Shown in pieces: positions 1,419 to 19,334 of a DNA stretch of 33,007 nt; within the stretch, counting starts at the first letter, position 1; each line of letters begins with the position of its first letter. The position numbers were made by a program, and so were the translations under genes. The DNA comes from a virus (taxonomy: Duplodnaviria > Heunggongvirae > Uroviricota > Caudoviricetes): positions 1-33,007 of IMG/VR virus record IMGVR_UViG_2547132254_000003; one strand, 5' to 3'. The notes beneath the pieces are model-generated. The model saw only the letters and a program-made list of their open reading frames with translations. It did not search any database and was not told the origin of the DNA.

Positions 1419-3890
1419 TTAAAAATCAGCCTGACTCGGGATCAGTTTTTGCCAGATAACTGAAACGTATTTTGCCTGGTAACGGGCGTCATCAAGTGCA
1501 TTATGGCGCTCACCTTCGAATGGAATAGCCGTTCTGGCATCGAAGTCTATGGCTTTCCCCAGCTCAACGATTGTGCGTACATCGCGATCGTTGTAGTAAC
1601 GCCACGGGCAGGGGATCCCCTGCCGTTCGTATGAACGGCGCAAAATCGTGTTGTCGAAGTTGGCTCCATTTCCCCAGACCTGAACAAAAAATTCACCGGA
1701 GTTTTCGTCGATAAATTCCCGCAATTGTAACAGTGCATCATCTAACGGGATTTCATCGGTCATAATGGCAGATTGCGCTTCGCGTGATTGCTTAAGCCAC
1801 CATTTAATGGTGTCCCGATCAATGACTCCGCCAGCAGTTTCCAGATCGATAGTCTTACTAAATTCCGGTCCCATATCTCCGGTTTGCGGATCGAAAAATA
1901 TTGCACCTATTGAGATGATCGGGGCATCAGGATTTTTTCCCATAGTTTCAAGGTCGATCATTAGATGGTCACACGTCCTGCTGGTGGATGTGATTTCTTG
2001 ATGACCGTTCACCTTAATTGAGTGATCTGCCGTCTCGCCAGTTTCATTATCGCTGGCATGATGCTGATTGCCGCCAGTATTCTCCTTGTGTGGATGTTCA
2101 GCGCCTTCCATTTCCTCCGGATCATCTTCCTGAACTTCAACCTGATACTCTTCATCGAATGTTTCCTGGTATGTTGCGTCGCCCATCACCGCGCCACAAT
2201 CAGGGCAGTTGCCGCCGCCGGTCTGACCGCAGGCGGTGCAGACTTTTTCCACTTCCTGTTGCGCCACTGGTTCAGGCTGTTTCGTTTCTGGCTCGTTTTG
2301 TAACGCATTTGGGCTGTTTTGTTCCGCTTTCTGGTCGTTCTGTTCCGTTTCTTGCTGGTTCTGGTTCACAGAATCGCGGGTCTGGATCCCCTTAACCCAT
2401 TTCGGATCATTCGGGTCGCTAATCCCTTCAACAAATTCACCACGTGATACTGCAAGCAGTTCATCGGCGTCAGGCTGGCTGATATTGGCTGCCTGCATAA
2501 TTTTGTTTACTTCGTCAGCGGTAACTTTTACTGACCCTGGTTGTGCGGTCGTGTCAGATGCACCAGTATTTTGTTGTGAACCTGAGTATGTACCGTTTTT
2601 GCGGGCGAAATATTCTTCTTTCGTGATTTCAGTAGCCCCGGCAGCCAGTGCCTTACCCAGACCAGAAAGTTTGTTTGCGCGACCGTATTTTTCGCCATCC
2701 TTGTCGGTGAAGAGGAAGTAGAACGGCCCCTCACGCTCTACAGATGGTTCGACTTCCACTTTGCATTCGGTTTTTTCGTTGTCCGGAATTGCCGTTTCCA
2801 CTGCATCAGTTTCTGGTACTGGCGCCGAGAGAGTATCAGTTGCGCTCTGATTTCTTCCTTCATCTTCAAACACGCCCTTTGTAGTCAGGTATTCAGTAAT
2901 GTATTTGTTCAGTGCCACAGGGTCTTTGTGAATGTCGATCGGACGTTCACGGACAAGGCCAAAAATAGTCTGGCGGTCGTAGCGAAGGGCATCAGGCTGT
3001 TTGCGCATTGATGCCGAGATACGCTTCCAGTCTTCGCGGTCGTTGTCGATAACTTCATTTTTTGCCCAGCGATGGATGCTGCCGTCAATGTTTCCGGCAT
3101 CCACATCACCAGGCCAGAGAGCGTAGGCCAGTTCGTCATCCAGTGTTTTCCATGTCTGCTTGTATTCGCGATGAGTGGCAGCAATGACCGGGTTGATTTT
3201 TCCTGTTGAATTTTCAGTGTGCTGTTGATTGGCTCTGGCGCGGGCGAGATCAACAACAGACGTGTATTTTCCGGTTTCCTTGCGTTCATCTTCGCGACGT
3301 TTTTTCCAGATGCGCATCTCTGCCTGAATTTCGGGCCATTTGGCACCTGGATTACATTTATGTTTAACCCACCCGATGGCGAGCAGCTTAAGCTCTGAAT
3401 ACATGACGTTAACTTCAGGCATTTTCATCAATGCCTCAACGATATGCCCGTCGAATGTTGCCATGTCCTCCTGCAACAATTCCTGTGCACTAATCACCAT
3501 ATCAACGGTGATGTTTTCACATGTACCGAACTTAACTAGGACCGCGTTCTGTACTTCAAGGGACAGCTTGTCAAAATTGACGTTCATCGGATCGGATTCT
3601 GGTTCGACCGGAATAAAGGAAGCGGATTCCTCATCCCAGTGGTTTTCCTGCATATATTCGGTATCCCAGGAATCAAGGGCAGGGCGGGCCATGCCGGGTT
3701 TATCCTCACAGACAAGAAATTTATAAGCGCAGTCCTGAGCAGCCGGATGTTGCTCCAGGAATTGCCAGGTAAATTTGGCACGGGCGCGGCGTTCGTCGCC
3801 GGCTTCAATGGCAGTGGCTACAGCAACTGCACCTTCTTCCTTTATTGCCTGTTCGTCCGGAATGGCGGCGCAAATAAAGACTTTACTCAT
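1419..3890 (-). CDS. Large exonuclease-like protein, 823 aa, in the RecE position; C-terminal DnaQ-like DEDDh 3'-5' exonuclease domain
   Basis: C-terminal region has IDLETMG (Exo I-like D-x-E) and HNALDDARY (Exo III-like H-x4-D) motifs; central acidic/Q-rich low-complexity segment; a CTACG...CPDCG four-cysteine motif. ATG at 3890 with GAGG upstream. Confidence 0.6.
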   Translation of the reverse strand: MSKVFICAAIPDEQAIKEEGAVAVATAIEAGDERRARAKFTWQFLEQHPAAQDCAYKFLVCEDKPGMARPALDSWDTEYMQENHWDEESASFIPVEPESDPMNVNFDKLSLEVQNAVLVKFGTCENITVDMVISAQELLQEDMATFDGHIVEALMKMPEVNVMYSELKLLAIGWVKHKCNPGAKWPEIQAEMRIWKKRREDERKETGKYTSVVDLARARANQQHTENSTGKINPVIAATHREYKQTWKTLDDELAYALWPGDVDAGNIDGSIHRWAKNEVIDNDREDWKRISASMRKQPDALRYDRQTIFGLVRERPIDIHKDPVALNKYITEYLTTKGVFEDEGRNQSATDTLSAPVPETDAVETAIPDNEKTECKVEVEPSVEREGPFYFLFTDKDGEKYGRANKLSGLGKALAAGATEITKEEYFARKNGTYSGSQQNTGASDTTAQPGSVKVTADEVNKIMQAANISQPDADELLAVSRGEFVEGISDPNDPKWVKGIQTRDSVNQNQQETEQNDQKAEQNSPNALQNEPETKQPEPVAQQEVEKVCTACGQTGGGNCPDCGAVMGDATYQETFDEEYQVEVQEDDPEEMEGAEHPHKENTGGNQHHASDNETGETADHSIKVNGHQEITSTSRTCDHLMIDLETMGKNPDAPIISIGAIFFDPQTGDMGPEFSKTIDLETAGGVIDRDTIKWWLKQSREAQSAIMTDEIPLDDALLQLREFIDENSGEFFVQVWGNGANFDNTILRRSYERQGIPCPWRYYNDRDVRTIVELGKAIDFDARTAIPFEGERHNALDDARYQAKYVSVIWQKLIPSQADF

Positions 3891-4414: not shown

Positions 4415-4467
4415 GGGCGGCAGAGCAGTCACGGAGTAAAACTGATACCGCCAAACGTCACCAGAAA
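4415..4467 (-). ncRNA. dicF: DicF-like small RNA (53 nt) followed by a T-run
   Basis: Reverse complement of 4415-4467 reads TTTCTGGTGACGTTTGGCGGTATCAGTTTTACTCCGTGACTGCTCTGCCGCCC followed by TTTTTA, which matches my memory of E. coli Qin DicF. Located in the leftward early operon. Confidence 0.65.
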
Positions 4468-11335: not shown

Positions 11336-11514
11336 TTTTATGGATCACCTTTCTGATTGATTTTATATTGGCGAGGTAACGGGAGTTAAGTAGAATGGCT
11401 GCGGGTGCTTGAGGCTATCTGTCTCAGGCATGAACACCAAAGGCAGATAGAGAAAAGCCCCAGTTAACATTACGCGTCCTGCAAGACGCTTAACATTAAT
11501 CTGAGGCTCAATCT

Positions 11515-11727
11515 ATGAACGGCAAATCTAGGTTAGCCTCTTACGTGCCGAAAGGCAAGGAGAAGCAGGCTATGAAGCAGCAAAAGGCGATGTTAATCGC
11601 CCTGATCGTCATCTGTTTAACCGTCATTGTGACGGCACTGGTAACGAGGAAAGACCTCTGCGAGGTACGAATCCGAACCGGCCAGACGGAGGTCGCTGTC
11701 TTCACAGCTTACGAACCTGAGGAGTAA
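11515..11727 (+). CDS. mok: Mok-like in-frame leader ORF overlapping hok, 70 aa
   Basis: In-frame upstream extension of the Hok ORF with GAGG upstream, analogous to chromosomal mokC/hokC organisation. Confidence 0.45.
   Translation: MNGKSRLASYVPKGKEKQAMKQQKAMLIALIVICLTVIVTALVTRKDLCEVRIRTGQTEVAVFTAYEPEE
11572..11727 (+). CDS. hok: Hok/Gef-family type I toxin, 51 aa
   Basis: MKQQKAMLIALIVICLTVIVTALVTRKDLCEVRIRTGQTEVAVFTAYEPEE: single TM helix plus the conserved RKDLCEV-IRTGQTEVAVFTAYE core of Hok/Gef; AAGGAG upstream of the ATG. Confidence 0.8.
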   Translation: MKQQKAMLIALIVICLTVIVTALVTRKDLCEVRIRTGQTEVAVFTAYEPEE

Positions 11728-11799: not shown

Positions 11800-13128
11800 C
11801 TGATGAATCCCCTAATGATTTTTATCAAAATCATTAAGTTAAGGTAGATACACATCTTGTCATATGATCAAATGGTTTCGCCAAAAATCAATAATCAGAC
11901 AACAAAATGTGCGAACTCGATATTTTACACGACTCTCTTTACCAATTCTGCCCCGAATTACACTTAAAACGACTCAACTGCTTAACGTTGGCTTGCCACG
12001 CCTTACTTGACTGTAAAACTCTCACTCTTACCGAACTTGGCCGTAACCTGCCAACCAAAGCGAGAACAAAACATAACATCAAACGAATCGACCGATTGTT
12101 AGGTAATCGTCACCTCCACAAAGAGCGACTCGCTGTATACCGTTGGCATGCTAGCTTTATCTGTTCGGGCAATACGATGCCCATTGTACTTGTTGACTGG
12201 TCTGATATCCGTGAGCAAAAACGGCTTATGGTATTGCGAGCTTCAGTCGCACTACACGGTCGTTCTGTTACTCTTTATGAGAAAGCGTTCCCGCTTTCAG
12301 AGCAATGTTCAAAGAAAGCTCATGACCAATTTCTAGCCGACCTTGCGAGCATTCTACCGAGTAACACCACACCGCTCATTGTCAGTGATGCTGGCTTTAA
12401 AGTGCCATGGTATAAATCCGTTGAGAAGCTGGGTTGGTACTGGTTAAGTCGAGTAAGAGGAAAAGTACAATATGCAGACCTAGGAGCGGAAAACTGGAAA
12501 CCTATCAGCAACTTACATGATATGTCATCTAGTCACTCAAAGACTTTAGGCTATAAGAGGCTGACTAAAAGCAATCCAATCTCATGCCAAATTCTATTGT
12601 ATAAATCTCGCTCTAAAGGCCGAAAAAATCAGCGCTCGACACGGACTCATTGTCACCACCCGTCACCTAAAATCTACTCAGCGTCGGCAAAGGAGCCATG
12701 GATTCTAGCAACTAACTTACCTGTTGAAATTCGAACACCCAAACAACTTGTTAATATCTATTCGAAGCGAATGCAGATTGAAGAAACCTTCCGAGACTTG
12801 AAAAGTCCTGCCTACGGACTAGGCCTACGCCATAGCCGAACGAGCAGCTCAGAGCGTTTTGATATCATGCTGCTAATCGCCCTGATGCTTCAACTAACAT
12901 GTTGGCTTGCGGGCGTTCATGCTCAGAAACAAGGTTGGGACAAGCACTTCCAGGCTAACACAGTCAGAAATCGAAACGTACTCTCAACAGTTCGCTTAGG
13001 CATGGAAGTTTTGCGGCATTCTGGCTACACAATAACAAGGGAAGACTCACTCGTGGCTGCAACCCTGCTTACTCAAAATCTATTCACACATGGTTACGTT
13101 TTGGGGAAATTATGAGGGGATCTCTCAG
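11800..13128 (+). mobile_element. IS10 (IS4 family), 1329 bp, intact, with terminal inverted repeats
   Basis: Left end CTGATGAATCCCCTAATGATTTT (IS10 outside end), right end reverse complement CTGAGAGATCCCCTCATAATTTCCCC (inside end); length 1329 bp; flanked by a perfect 9-bp direct repeat. Confidence 0.9.
11907..13115 (+). CDS. IS10 transposase, 402 aa
   Basis: Full-length ORF, MCELDILHDSLYQFCPELHLKRLN... matching my recollection of IS10/Tn10 transposase almost residue for residue; no frameshift or stop. Confidence 0.9.
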   Translation: MCELDILHDSLYQFCPELHLKRLNCLTLACHALLDCKTLTLTELGRNLPTKARTKHNIKRIDRLLGNRHLHKERLAVYRWHASFICSGNTMPIVLVDWSDIREQKRLMVLRASVALHGRSVTLYEKAFPLSEQCSKKAHDQFLADLASILPSNTTPLIVSDAGFKVPWYKSVEKLGWYWLSRVRGKVQYADLGAENWKPISNLHDMSSSHSKTLGYKRLTKSNPISCQILLYKSRSKGRKNQRSTRTHCHHPSPKIYSASAKEPWILATNLPVEIRTPKQLVNIYSKRMQIEETFRDLKSPAYGLGLRHSRTSSSERFDIMLLIALMLQLTCWLAGVHAQKQGWDKHFQANTVRNRNVLSTVRLGMEVLRHSGYTITREDSLVAATLLTQNLFTHGYVLGKL

Positions 13129-15238: not shown

Positions 15239-15598
15239 ATGCGTATAGAGTTTGTTTTGCCTTATCCGCCGACGGTGAATACTTACTGGCGACGTCGTGG
15301 CAACACATATTTTGTATCAAAAGTCGGTGAGCGTTATCGCCGTGATGTGGCACTAATTGTTCGCCAGCAGCGGTTGAAATTAAACCTGTCCGGAAGGCTG
15401 GCAATAAAAATTATTGCAGAGCCACCGGATAAGCGCCGCCGCGACCTGGACAATATCCTGAAGGCACCACTGGATGCGCTGACGCATGCCGGACTTCTCA
15501 TAGACGACGAGCAGTTTGATGAAATCAATATTGTGCGCGGACTGCCTGTTCCTGGTGGTCGGCTGGGGATAAAAATCACAGAACTGGAGTGCGCATGA
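15239..15598 (+). CDS. rusA: RusA Holliday junction resolvase, 119 aa
   Basis: Conserved RRDLDN and GGRL motifs and overall similarity to E. coli RusA; AAGAGG upstream. Confidence 0.8.
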   Translation: MRIEFVLPYPPTVNTYWRRRGNTYFVSKVGERYRRDVALIVRQQRLKLNLSGRLAIKIIAEPPDKRRRDLDNILKAPLDALTHAGLLIDDEQFDEINIVRGLPVPGGRLGIKITELECA

Positions 15599-16284
15599 AT
15601 AACCAGTATTTACAGTTTGTGCGTGAGCAGCTCATTATCGCTACCGCTGATTTGAGTGGGGCAACAAAAGGTCAGCTTGAAGCCTGGCAGGAGAATGCCA
15701 TGTTTGATACAGGGCGTTACAGGCGTAAAAAAATCCGGTACCGCGATGAAGTGACTGGAAGAATGATAACGCGGGATAGTCCACCGATACCGGGAAAACA
15801 ATCACTGGCGAAAGGCTCATCAATTGCTCTGGTAAGTCAGGTTGAGTTTTCGACATCATCATGGCGACGGGCAGTTCTGTCTCTTGAAGAACATCATAAA
15901 GCCTGGTTGTTGTGGTGTTACAGCGGGAGTATTTGTTGGGAATATCAGATCGCGATAACACAGTGGGCGTGGAATGAATTTAATACTCAATCCGGTACCA
16001 GAAAAATTGCAGGGAAAACGCAGGAACGCCTGAAAAAATTAATCTGGCTGGCGGCGCAGGCATTAAAAGCAGAACTTTTTGGTGGGGAAGGTTATGAATA
16101 CCAGGAGCTGGCATTACTGGCGGGAGTGACAACTAAAAACTGGTCCAAAACATTTACTCGTCACTGGGTTGCAATGAAACACATTTTTCACCGACTTGAT
16201 AGTGAGGCTTTATTGTTTGTAATGAGAACACGTTCAAAACAAAAGGCGGCATTTTCAAAGCAAAGTGTTGCAAAAGTAGATTGA
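15595..16284 (+). CDS. Putative late-gene antiterminator Q, about 229 aa
   Basis: ATG overlaps the rusA stop (ATGA); followed by a promoter/terminator region and the lysis genes. Called by position; no motif recognised. Confidence 0.5.
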   Translation: MNNQYLQFVREQLIIATADLSGATKGQLEAWQENAMFDTGRYRRKKIRYRDEVTGRMITRDSPPIPGKQSLAKGSSIALVSQVEFSTSSWRRAVLSLEEHHKAWLLWCYSGSICWEYQIAITQWAWNEFNTQSGTRKIAGKTQERLKKLIWLAAQALKAELFGGEGYEYQELALLAGVTTKNWSKTFTRHWVAMKHIFHRLDSEALLFVMRTRSKQKAAFSKQSVAKVD

Positions 16285-16478: not shown

Positions 16479-16554
16479 GGCCCTTTAGCTCAGTGGTGAG
16501 AGCGAGCGACTCATAATCGCCAGGTCGCTGGTTCAAATCCAGCAAGGGCCACCA
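16479..16554 (+). tRNA. tRNA with anticodon CAU, Ile2 (lysidine)-like, 76 nt, CCA encoded
   Basis: Cloverleaf folds by eye; anticodon loop CUCAUAA; close to my memory of E. coli ileX. Ile versus Met cannot be decided from the anticodon alone. Confidence 0.75.
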
Positions 16555-16555
16555 G

Positions 16556-16632
16556 CCGCCACTAGCTCATCAGGAAAGAGCGTCAACCCTTTAAGTTGAG
16601 TGTGCGAGGTTCGAGTCCCCGGTGGCGGTCCA
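16556..16632 (+). tRNA. tRNA-like gene, 77 nt, noncanonical anticodon loop; identity uncertain
   Basis: All stems pair except one A-C mismatch in the T-stem; anticodon loop CCUUUAA has C at position 33 (normally U), giving nominal anticodon UUU; begins with C1-G72. Confidence 0.5.
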
Positions 16633-16634
16633 GT

Positions 16635-16710
<76 letters not shown>

Positions 16711-16713
16711 TAT

Positions 16714-16788
<75 letters not shown>

Positions 16789-17082: not shown

Positions 17083-17298
17083 ATGAAATCCATGGACAAA
17101 ATTTCAACGGGCATTGCCTACGGCACCTCCGCAGGCAGTGCTGGCTACTGGTTTTTACAGTGGCTTGATCAGGTCAGTCCGTCACAGTGGGCTGCGATTG
17201 GTGTACTGGGGAGTCTGGTTCTGGGCTTCCTGACTTATCTGACAAATCTGTACTTCAAAATCAGAGAAGACAAGCGTAAGGCTGCACGGGGAGAGTAA
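17083..17298 (+). CDS. Class II pinholin, phage 21 S-like, with dual-start motif (71/68 aa)
   Basis: [30 protein letters not shown]...: two TM segments, Met1/Met4 dual start, charged C-terminus; GGAGGTGAGG upstream. Confidence 0.85.
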
Positions 17299-17302
17299 TT
17301 CA

Positions 17303-17617
17303 ATGACTCAAAACTATGAACTGATTGTGAAAGGGATCCGCAATTTTGAGAATAAAGTTACGGTAACTTTAGCGTTACGGGACAAAAAACGCTTTGACGG
17401 TGAAATTTTTGGCTTGGACATCTCGCTGGACCGTGTTGAAGGTGCCGCGCTGGAGTTTTATGAGGCAGCAGCCAGAAGGAGCATCAGACAGGTCTTCCTG
17501 GATGTTGCTGCCGGGTTATGTGAAGGGGACGAGCTGTTGCCAGAAACGCGCCCCTGTTCAGAGGCGCGGTATACCATAAAAATTAACAGTTCTGATAACT
17601 CGATTACAGGTTGTTAG
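17303..17617 (+). CDS. Hypothetical soluble protein, 104 aa, between holin and endolysin
   Basis: ATG 4 nt after the holin stop with a GGAGAG-like SD; no TM segment; no motif recognised. Confidence 0.5.
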   Translation: MTQNYELIVKGIRNFENKVTVTLALRDKKRFDGEIFGLDISLDRVEGAALEFYEAAARRSIRQVFLDVAAGLCEGDELLPETRPCSEARYTIKINSSDNSITGC

Positions 17618-17672
17618 CTTTTTGCAGTTGGCTTTCCAGTATCTTTCATTGGTAGCATCCTGATAAATATCC

Positions 17673-18206
17673 ATGAGCGCAAAAATCAAATACGGCCTGT
17701 CAGCTGCTGTTCTGGCGCTGATTGCTGCAGGCGCGTCTGCTCCTCAAATACTTGACCAGTTTCTGGATGAAAAAGAGGGTAACCACACTACGGCATACCG
17801 CGATGGTTCCGGTATATGGACCATCTGTCGTGGTGCCACAATGGTGGATGGTAAGCCCGTCATACCGGGAATGAAGCTGTCGAAGGAAAAATGCGACCAG
17901 GTTAACGCTATTGAACGTGATAAGGCGTTGGCATGGGTGGAGCGCAATATTAAAGTACCACTGACCGAACCACAGAAAGCGGGTATAGCGTCATTCTGTC
18001 CCTATAACATTGGCCCCGGTAAGTGTTTCCCGTCGACGTTTTATAAGCGGCTGAATGCCGGTGATCGTAAGGGCGCATGCGAGGCGATTCGCTGGTGGAT
18101 AAAAGATGGTGGGCGCGATTGCCGCATACGTTCAAATAACTGCTATGGACAGGTTATTCGTCGTGACCAGGAAAGCGCATTAGCCTGTTGGGGGATAGAT
18201 CAGTGA
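17673..18206 (+). CDS. SAR endolysin (T4-lysozyme-like, phage 21 R type), 177 aa
   Basis: N-terminal signal-anchor-release hydrophobic segment ([15 protein letters not shown]); catalytic spacing E-x8-D-x5-T ([16 protein letters not shown]). Confidence 0.85.
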
Positions 18207-18670
18207 GCAGAGTCGCAGCGATTATTTATACTCTGGTTATCTGCACCATCGTCTGCCTGTCGTGGGCGGTCAATCATTACCGTGATAACGCCATCGCCTA
18301 CAAAGAACAGCGTGATAAAAAAGTCAGTGAGCTGAAGCAGGCGACTGCCACCATCGCTGACATGCAACAGCGTCAGCGTGATGTTGCTGCGCTCGATGCA
18401 AAGTACTCGAGAGAATTAGCCAATGCGAAAGCTGAAAATGAAACTCTGCGCGCTGATGTTGCCGCTGGTCGTAAGCGCCTGCGGGTCAATGCCAGTTGCT
18501 CCGCAGCCGTGCGTGAAGCCACCGGACCCACCAGCGTGGATAATGCAACCAGCCCCCGACTGGCAGACACCGCTGAACGGGATTATTTCACCCTCAGAGA
18601 ACGGTTGATGACGATGCAGAAGCAACTGGAAGGGGCACAGCTATACATTCGTGAGCAATGTCTCAGATAA
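18203..18670 (+). CDS. Rz-like i-spanin, about 155 aa
   Basis: GTG overlapping the endolysin stop; N-terminal TM helix then coiled-coil-rich periplasmic domain; contains an embedded Rz1-like ORF. Confidence 0.7.
18423..18608 (+). CDS. Rz1-like o-spanin (outer-membrane lipoprotein) embedded in Rz in a different frame
   Basis: Signal peptide with lipobox VVSAC; proline-rich mature part; entirely within Rz. Confidence 0.65.
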
Positions 18671-18848: not shown

Positions 18849-19334
18849 TTATTTTGTGGTTTTGAAAAGTTTCATGTACTGATTGATAGGTTTTCCTGAG
18901 TAAGAATCTGTCCCTGGCTCAGGAGTATCAGATAAAACTTTTGCAGCTAATTTGTTGGAGGCTTGATTACCAACCCCGACAATAGCCTCTACATAGAATT
19001 CATTGAAGGAATTTCTAAATCCGTATTGCATTTCTTCAATGCTGGCGATGAGAAGTTGAGTACCGATGCCTTGCGCTTTATATTCATCGGCTACTGCATA
19101 GCCAACGCCAAAGCATGGTTTACCTTCAACAAACTCTGCAGGGACATATATAGCAACACCTTTAACATTTTCTCCTTCAAAGAATGCATAAGTAAACCGT
19201 GGTGTACCCTCTGCATCATCCAAAAGCACCTTCATATTTGGGTGAACTATGCATGGTGAAGGCTTAATCAGACCATTAGAAAAGGCGTATTGAAAACTAA
19301 TTAATGAGTCTGTTGGATCAACGAGTTCTGGCAT
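18849..19334 (-). CDS. GNAT-family N-acetyltransferase-like protein, 161 aa (reverse-strand moron)
   Basis: Candidate acetyl-CoA-binding motif AQGIGTQLL; AT-rich gene and flanks; opposite orientation to the lysis and packaging genes; no partner ORF upstream. Confidence 0.55.
   Translation of the reverse strand: MPELVDPTDSLISFQYAFSNGLIKPSPCIVHPNMKVLLDDAEGTPRFTYAFFEGENVKGVAIYVPAEFVEGKPCFGVGYAVADEYKAQGIGTQLLIASIEEMQYGFRNSFNEFYVEAIVGVGNQASNKLAAKVLSDTPEPGTDSYSGKPINQYMKLFKTTK

Follow-up and report, generated by a model that had tools for sequence, protein, structure and literature searches.

The window, by which we mean the whole 33,007-nt stretch of viral DNA that was analyzed, contains the block Q-tRNA-S-DUF1327-R-Rz, with which the late operon of a lambdoid prophage begins. 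Genes for the late antiterminator, four tRNAs, a holin (S), a lysozyme (R) and the two spanins (Rz and Rz1) are all carried on the plus strand of this block, and a gene of the DUF1327 or YdfR family is located between S and R. The features of the block are the following.

15589..16284, plus strand: gene for late antiterminator Q, upstream of the late operon (Pfam PF06323, Phage_antiter_Q, E = 2e-89)
16479..16788, plus strand: four tRNA genes (Met-CAT, Lys-TTT, Thr-TGT and Gly-TCC) between Q and S (ARAGORN, Rfam)
17083..17298, plus strand: S, gene for an S21-type class II holin, or pinholin (Pfam PF04971, E = 1e-35)
17288..17295, plus strand: Shine-Dalgarno sequence GGGGAGAG of the DUF1327 gene, within the last codons (3′ end) of S
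17303..17617, plus strand: DUF1327/YdfR-family gene, ATG start, 104 codons for 104 aa
17303..17524, plus strand: codons 1-74 of this gene, conserved DUF1327 domain (PF07041, alignments, AlphaFold2, dN/dS of 0.2-0.4)
17525..17617, plus strand: codons 75-104 and stop, variable C-terminal tail (alignments; low-confidence structure prediction)
17618..17656, minus strand: what is left of the 3′ end of phrog_21218, a convergent partner gene that encodes 79 aa in phage Perceval (alignment with the Perceval locus L003, PHROG match)
17657..17672, plus strand: conserved 16-nt leader directly 5′ of R, ATCCTGATAAATATCC (alignment, motif scan)
17673..18206, plus strand: R, gene for a 177-aa phage lysozyme of the RrrQ/933W-R type (Pfam PF00959)
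18188..18670, plus strand: Rz, i-spanin gene (Pfam PF03245, E = 2e-49)
18423..18608, plus strand: Rz1, embedded o-spanin gene (Pfam PF06085, E = 1e-18)

The holin gene, whose product carries the dual-start motif M1-K-S-M4, ends with a TAA codon at 17296-17298, and the ATG of the DUF1327 gene follows at 17303 after a spacer of just 4 nt. The first-pass annotation of this DNA had described exactly such a 104-aa ORF between the pinholin and lysozyme genes, 4 nt after the holin stop, and this description is correct. It had also credited the ORF with a ribosome-binding site. A Shine-Dalgarno sequence, GGGGAGAG, is indeed present, and it is embedded in the 3′ end of S with its GGAG ending 9 nt 5′ of the ATG. 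Alignment of the junctions reveals that the same S-embedded Shine-Dalgarno sequence serves R in VT2-Sakai.

No promoter-like or terminator-like sites were found between 17083 and 17673 in a consensus scan. Due to the position of the gene within the S-R-Rz block and of its Shine-Dalgarno sequence within S, it is expected to be expressed with the late lysis genes, as the first-pass annotation had anticipated. The gene relies on the late transcript and on the S-embedded Shine-Dalgarno sequence, and has no promoter or terminator of its own of the kind that a moron, as defined by Juhala and Hendrix, carries. The other mark of a moron, a location between neighbors that are adjacent in relatives, is present because S and R adjoin each other in both VT2-Sakai and phage 21.

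A motif scan revealed no recognizable Shine-Dalgarno sequence for R within 25 nt upstream of its start, the region that includes the 16-nt leader. This leader is kept in all aligned variants except the one from the K-12 Qin prophage. The N-terminal segment of the lysozyme is rich in Ala and Gly, weakly hydrophobic, and SAR-like. To this extent the earlier description of R as an R21-like SAR endolysin holds, but orthology with R21 does not, given that the two proteins are 34% identical and the window enzyme is of the RrrQ/933W-R type. The same N-terminal segment ends with A-S-A-P, and looks no less like a signal-peptidase site than like a SAR domain.

The ORF had been reported in the first-pass annotation as unknown and lacking any recognizable motif, but it belongs to a catalogued family. 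Its product matches Pfam PF07041 (DUF1327) with 128.9 bits relative to a cut-off of 25 (E = 8e-38), across profile positions 1-90 of 93, and matches PHROG 2735 with E = 2e-54. Altogether, five PHROG families are matched (105, 114, 174, 183 and 296 aa), all of unknown function, and only about the first 85 residues, the N-terminal domain, are common to them. In RefSeq, genes that are identical or nearly so are labeled “DUF1327 domain-containing protein” or “YdfR family protein.” Thus, the ORF is almost certainly the YdfR/DUF1327 gene as carried by this prophage. Both the family and the arrangement are known, and the gene and its position have been catalogued before.

Pairwise dN/dS for the N-terminal domain is 0.26 when the window gene is compared with K-12 YdfR, with BP-4795 and with a distant 71-aa homolog, and values for this domain are mostly 0.2-0.4 at informative divergence. 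Such purifying selection points to a genuine coding gene rather than a chance ORF. The encoded protein is acidic (pI 5.0) and lacks any hydrophobic or transmembrane segment. Its maximum Kyte-Doolittle mean over 19 residues is 0.75, compared with 1.72 for S and 1.78 for the N terminus of R. These properties predict a cytoplasmic and soluble protein, consistent with the solubility and lack of a transmembrane segment claimed for it earlier.

The YdfR family is modular, with a constant N-terminal domain to which swappable tails are attached. The domain comprises approximately 72 aa, carries the motifs Y-E-L-x-V-K and G-A-x-L-E-F-Y-E-A, and aligns without gaps down to the distant members of the family. 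Among 33 sequences with identities as low as 25%, residues Y53, E54 and A57 are invariant. The AlphaFold2 model consists of antiparallel strands formed by residues 5-14, 18-27 and 34-43, which are followed by a long helix (residues 50-74) with the invariant G-A-x-L-E-F-Y-E-A motif at its start. When only close homologs were supplied the model was poor (pLDDT 61.5), and the addition of distant relatives raised the value to 75.6. Block-mean pLDDT is 78-93 over residues 1-70 and 48-59 over residues 71-104, with residues 81-89 falling below 50.

The tail of the window protein represents one of at least five unrelated tail classes in the DUF1327 family. Some YdfR-family proteins are extended at the C terminus to 176, 206, 268 or 287 aa, and examples of these are encoded at survey loci L074 (3001..3807), L007 (3001..3552) and L011 (270..890), or are represented by proteins P0132 (287 aa) and P0125 (206 aa). 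These long tails include a coiled-coil-like segment and the PHROG-defined modules phrog_1085, 2091 and 34145. Neither the window protein nor the long-tailed variants gave any match to the defense profiles of PADLOC-DB.

A Foldseek comparison of the window model with the PDB identified no significant structural relative (best E = 0.35). Searches of BFVD with the model and of PDB sequences yielded nothing useful and nothing, respectively. The scores obtained against the PDB reflect a generic beta-beta-beta-alpha unit and establish no function.

The gene is exceedingly common among E. coli prophages. DNA matches to the ORF are present in 4243 of 5426 complete E. coli genomes (∼78%), with as many as eight copies per genome, and the whole S-ORF-R block is covered to at least 80% in 3897 E. 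coli genomes. The protein is also encoded in 101 phage records, including those of Perceval, H-19B, BP-4795 and many Stx1a and Stx2c phages. An S21-type holin is found in 438 phage records, of which these 101 carry the DUF1327 gene, corresponding to about a quarter of such cassettes. The first-pass annotation had viewed the ORF as an unusual insertion and had proposed a survey of S21/R21-type cassettes. The survey contradicts this view, because the same S-YdfR-R order recurs in K-12 Qin and in the phage records and complete genomes just mentioned. The gene is therefore a common component of these cassettes, but not a characterized one.

Synteny was surveyed across 88 E. coli-type loci taken from species genomes and from IMG/VR. 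In all loci with intact upstream sequence, the DUF1327 gene begins 4 nt after the gene for an S21-type holin (74-100% identical), and in all loci with intact downstream sequence, a gene for the 177-aa lysozyme (>90% identical) follows. The distance from the DUF1327 gene to the lysozyme gene ranges from an overlap to ∼1.3 kb across the 88 loci, and both exceptions examined are IS insertions. When one genome was used for each of 185,579 species, the loci recovered were exclusively from Escherichia and Shigella, apart from two MAGs. These two (L009 and L011, with the GTDB labels Veillonella parvula and Bacillota) have an E. coli-type S-YdfR-R block. Their bins are likely contaminated with Escherichia prophage contigs, because the identities of S, YdfR and R of L009 to the query are the same as those of the E. 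coli locus L008.

Searching 1.84 billion representative proteins with a profile returned 82 clusters. The DUF1327 family is a narrow one, found in lambdoid prophages that are almost exclusively those of Escherichia and Shigella. The Qin-type synteny of S21-type holin, YdfR, and 177-aa RrrQ-type lysozyme, which the window shares, is confined to the Escherichia subgroup. The profile search also uncovered relatives of 71-76 aa that consist of the domain only and are 25-50% identical; these come from metagenome and SRA assemblies. Five of them were located in lambdoid late operons, where they occupy positions after the tape-measure gene H (between H and M), between M and L, between L and K, after tail gene I, and after Rz. 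The domain-only loci are L094 (4001..4231), L098 (511..741), L099 (1094..1312), L093 (446..664) and L101 (503..718).

With this distribution, the DUF1327 gene ranks among the most widespread uncharacterized genes of E. coli prophages, and it belongs to the uncharacterized y-genes of K-12. Its residence in the late operons of Stx1a and Stx2c phages means that any role in RNA decay, or in controlling neighboring cargo genes, would be of broad relevance.

Comparison with named prophages and phages establishes how the cassette varies. K-12 YdfR (b1555, P76160), which is encoded by the Qin cryptic prophage, is a member of the same family (PF07041) and is 64% identical to the window protein overall and 80.6% identical over residues 1-72. 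The order of genes in Qin, namely essQ (holin), ydfR, rrrQ (lysozyme) and rzpQ/rzoQ, is the order in the window, and the 4-nt junction between S and ydfR is the same. In addition, the window holin is 82% identical to EssQ and the window lysozyme is 94% identical to RrrQ. The two loci differ in that the K-12 tail from about residue 73 onward is of another class, and in that the stop codon of K-12 ydfR overlaps the start of rrrQ (4 nt), whereas the window has a 55-nt spacer. The S-DUF1327-R order is also found in Perceval (OV696612), whose protein is 99% identical to that of the window, and in BP-4795, H-19B and Stx1a phages. The BP-4795-type protein is ∼56% identical to the window protein and has a different tail. 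Between its ydfR and R genes, Perceval keeps a convergent gene for 79 aa (phrog_21218) that has been lost in the window.

Phage 21 (OL657228) has a holin, S21, that is 98.6% identical to the window holin, and has tRNA genes upstream and Rz/Rz1 downstream as in the window, but it is without a DUF1327 gene. There S21 overlaps R21, which bears out both the statement in the first-pass annotation that R directly follows S in phage 21 and its claim that the ORF is an extra gene by comparison. VT2-Sakai, a functional Stx2a phage with a 933W-type cassette, likewise has no DUF1327 gene, even though its holin is of the same type as that of the window (76% identical) and its lysozyme is 93% identical. 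The geometry of the 4-nt spacer and S-embedded Shine-Dalgarno sequence is identical to that in the window, but the slot held by ydfR in the window is occupied by R. This use of the ydfR slot by R indicates that the DUF1327 gene is an optional insertion.

These comparisons bear directly on whether the gene has a role in lysis. Pfam and PHROG searches and hydropathy analysis revealed none of the hallmarks of a lysis protein in the ORF, whether a membrane segment, a SAR or signal sequence, a lipobox, or a muralytic domain. A core component of the lysis machinery should be present wherever its cognate holin and endolysin are present, and its family should be restricted to lysis cassettes. Instead, the gene is absent from phage 21 and VT2-Sakai and is present in 101 of the 438 holin-bearing records, and homologs are located between H and M, M and L, and L and K, and after tail gene I. 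The existence of family members in tail modules, and the absence of the gene from functional cassettes that have the same holin and lysozyme, rule out a core lysis factor. Judged by the gene content of phage 21, VT2-Sakai and the 438 records, the DUF1327 gene is dispensable for lysis. The first-pass annotation had offered two possible roles for the ORF, as a modulator of lysis timing or as unrelated cargo. Of these, cargo provides the better fit, and the holin-lysozyme pair of VT2-Sakai that does without the gene and the tail-module relatives both weigh against a modulator.

The spacer between the DUF1327 gene and R (17618..17672) is composed of the 39-nt partner remnant and the conserved 16-nt leader. 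An alignment with the DNA of Perceval reveals that the window has the Perceval arrangement minus 315 bp, and that 39 nt from the 3′ end of the partner gene have been left behind. This remnant identifies the window as a deletion derivative. DUF1327 genes usually have an immediate convergent gene on the opposite strand, and in nine distinct contexts this gene lies within ∼50 nt of the DUF1327 stop codon or overlaps it. Partner genes are located as follows, with positions numbered within each survey locus. The first four are from E. coli cassettes in which ydfR and R are farther apart.

L003 (Perceval) 3312..3551, minus strand: phrog_21218, 79 aa
L006 3311..3589, minus strand: phrog_2411, 90-92 aa, the partner in L006 and in BLR(DE3) (RefSeq: hypothetical protein)
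L007 3500..3766, minus strand: phrog_2572, 88 aa
L074 3817..4131, minus strand: phrog_1853, 104 aa
L094 4273..4821, minus strand: partner gene at a distant copy
L099 1340..1639, minus strand: partner gene at a distant copy
L101 768..1328, minus strand: partner gene at a distant copy
L098 754..966, minus strand: partner gene at a distant copy

The partners at tail-module and post-Rz sites are phrog_18578 (182-186 aa), phrog_25324 (99 aa) and a 70-aa ORF. In total, the partners fall into at least six unrelated families (phrog_21218, 2411, 2572, 1853, 18578 and 25324). Six convergent partners gave no match to PADLOC, and partners were also without a match in Pfam and NCBIfam; two that were compared with PDB sequences gave no match there. 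Pairs are nevertheless retained when the DUF1327 gene is found elsewhere in the late operon. DUF1327 proteins that are only 26% identical, one encoded at the L/K site and the other after Rz, are paired with phrog_18578 proteins that are 42% identical, and DUF1327 proteins that are 47% identical, encoded after H and after I, are paired with phrog_25324 proteins that are 76% identical. Moreover, the tail class of YdfR correlates with the family of the partner.

All experimental clues regarding the biochemical activity of the protein come from studies of K-12 YdfR. Residues 1-72 of this protein were recovered three times in a bacterial two-hybrid screen. Its two-hybrid signals were stronger with RNase E constructs than with RNase G, and for full-length YdfR the sole signal was that with Rne 1-597 (PMC13232886). 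FLAG-tagged Rne(1-598) co-eluted with Strep-tagged K-12 YdfR, and DNase-resistant nucleic acid co-purified with YdfR, although, according to the authors, a contaminating RNA-binding protein might account for it (PMC13232886). Overproduction of K-12 YdfR changed few transcripts and left growth unimpaired (PMC13232886). A 3-fold effect of YdfR overexpression on the streptomycin MIC provides an additional, weak lead (PMC12924614).

The region of the K-12 protein that interacts with RNase E, residues 1-72, shares 80.6% identity with the window protein and coincides exactly with the conserved DUF1327 domain. Because of this correspondence, the window protein is read as a late accessory factor that would contact RNase E, RNA, or both. 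By analogy with K-12 YdfR, we infer binding of RNase E and of RNA for the window protein. The predicted structure lends this mechanism no independent support, since there is no significant match in the PDB or BFVD.

Other phage proteins, namely T4 Srd, T7 gp0.7 and phiKZ Dip, are modulators of host RNase E. The likeness to these proteins is a possible functional analogy only, in that a small phage protein contacts RNase E, and YdfR has been reported to contact the N-terminal catalytic half of the enzyme, like Srd. The PDB includes Dip, and neither sequence nor fold similarity was detected between the window protein and anything in that database.

Our preferred reading, to which we assign a probability of roughly 0.4 with its mechanism included, is that the gene encodes a late cytoplasmic accessory factor that contacts RNase E. 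A YdfR/DUF1327 gene has been inserted at the junction between genes for an S21-type pinholin and a lysozyme of the RrrQ/933W type, where it now uses the ribosome-binding site that lies within the end of S. The protein would be made late in induction together with the lysis proteins, while remaining outside the lysis machinery. Its N-terminal domain of three strands plus a helix would contact host RNase E through the N-terminal catalytic half of the enzyme, perhaps with RNA as a further ligand, and would thereby adjust RNA decay in the late phase. A second function may be added by the variable tail and, in many relatives, by the convergent partner gene, which has been deleted from the window. 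Family membership, synteny, purifying selection, dispensability for lysis, and the occurrence of family members outside lysis cassettes are established. An effect on RNA decay and a benefit to the phage are speculative.

Several observations count against the RNase E reading. The data on RNase E and RNA were obtained with the K-12 protein rather than that of the window, by two-hybrid analysis and by co-purification using overproduced protein. There is no significant fold or sequence match in the PDB or BFVD, and overproducing YdfR altered few transcripts and had no effect on growth. Furthermore, the absolute linkage of the E. coli copies to the holin stop codon could still reflect a role related to lysis, and the conserved pairing with convergent genes suggests that the primary function may involve the partner and not RNase E. 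Each of the last two points leads to a different explanation for the gene.

If linkage to the holin gene is the decisive feature, then the protein might be a direct regulator of lysis timing, acting as a cytoplasmic factor that delays or sharpens triggering by binding either the SAR lysozyme or the C-terminal tail of the pinholin. The start of the gene is invariably 4 nt after the stop codon of holin genes whose products are 74-100% identical, it always occurs with the same type of lysozyme, and its expression is obligatorily coupled to that of S. In addition, a screen for envelope integrity, which is reference 79 of PMC13232886, reportedly picked up a K-12 ydfR mutant. However, this hit could have arisen because the resistance cassette was polar on the lysozyme gene downstream. 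Moreover, the same S/R pair functions without the gene in VT2-Sakai, phage 21 also lacks it, and three quarters of the phage records with an S21-type holin are without it. Distant homologs reside in tail modules far from any holin gene, the DUF1327 protein has no membrane segment, and overproduction of K-12 YdfR causes no growth or lysis phenotype (PMC13232886). We therefore consider a direct regulator of lysis timing to be very unlikely. The position of the gene might also matter in cis, with the protein itself being of little importance. The ORF takes the ribosome-binding slot at the end of S and leaves R behind a leader that lacks a Shine-Dalgarno sequence, which would lower lysozyme translation or uncouple it. 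In agreement with this idea, R of VT2-Sakai uses the S-embedded Shine-Dalgarno sequence with the same 4-nt spacer that ydfR has, R of the window has no recognizable one within 25 nt, and the 16-nt leader before R is kept in all aligned variants but K-12 Qin. Yet purifying selection acts on the protein, and the 72-aa domain is kept at 25-30% identity in other contexts, which argue that the protein itself is the selected entity. The 4-nt overlap of ydfR and rrrQ in K-12 would also permit translational coupling of R to ydfR, and if so R is not generally uncoupled. An effect in cis alone is thus highly improbable.

The conserved pairing leads instead to a mobile two-gene module, in which the late-strand DUF1327 gene and the convergent gene cooperate, for example as a prophage effector and its late modulator. 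The convergent gene would probably have its own promoter in the lysogen. Under these circumstances the window ORF would be an orphan whose original role has perhaps been lost or reduced. A convergent neighbor is present in nine contexts, pairs persist through strong divergence and relocation, tail class correlates with partner family, and the window matches Perceval minus 315 bp with a 39-nt remnant of the partner. On the other hand, the window type, K-12 Qin, the 116-aa type, and BP-4795 have no partner, yet their DUF1327 genes are intact and under purifying selection. This indicates that the DUF1327 gene has value alone, and for this reason we treat the two-gene module as a rival rather than as the lead explanation. 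The partners also belong to at least six unrelated families without matches in Pfam, NCBIfam or PADLOC, and simple linkage could account for the correlation of tail class with partner. Overall, the two-gene module seems somewhat unlikely. A bolder version combines it with the RNase E reading. DUF1327 and its convergent neighbor would constitute a previously undescribed lambdoid mobile module that is found at many points in late operons, with the DUF1327 half controlling, through RNase E or RNA binding, the partner or a transcript that overlaps it in antisense, and the window would be a decayed version. Although we regard this combination as quite unlikely, the module, if real, would switch accessory cargo between lysogenic and lytic expression.

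Irrespective of which explanation is correct, the analysis adds to the catalogued family evidence against a core role in lysis, and describes a family that relocates within late operons with a convergent partner, which provides a testable handle on its function.

Other features of the window were noted in the course of this work. Just after Rz/Rz1, at 18849..19334 on the minus strand, lies a gene for a GNAT-family acetyltransferase (PF00583, E = 4e-6). Phage 21 and Perceval have bor at this position, indicating that different accessory cargo occupies the same hotspot. In the early region, Rfam identifies the antisense RNA DicF at 4415..4466 (minus strand) and the sok antitoxin RNA of a hok/sok locus at 11403..11577 (plus strand). 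An IS10 RNA-OUT match at 11845..11914 (minus strand) is located beside a 402-aa ORF at 11907..13115 (plus strand). This ORF is in the position expected for the IS10 transposase gene, and IS10 appears to be inserted near the replication/nin region.
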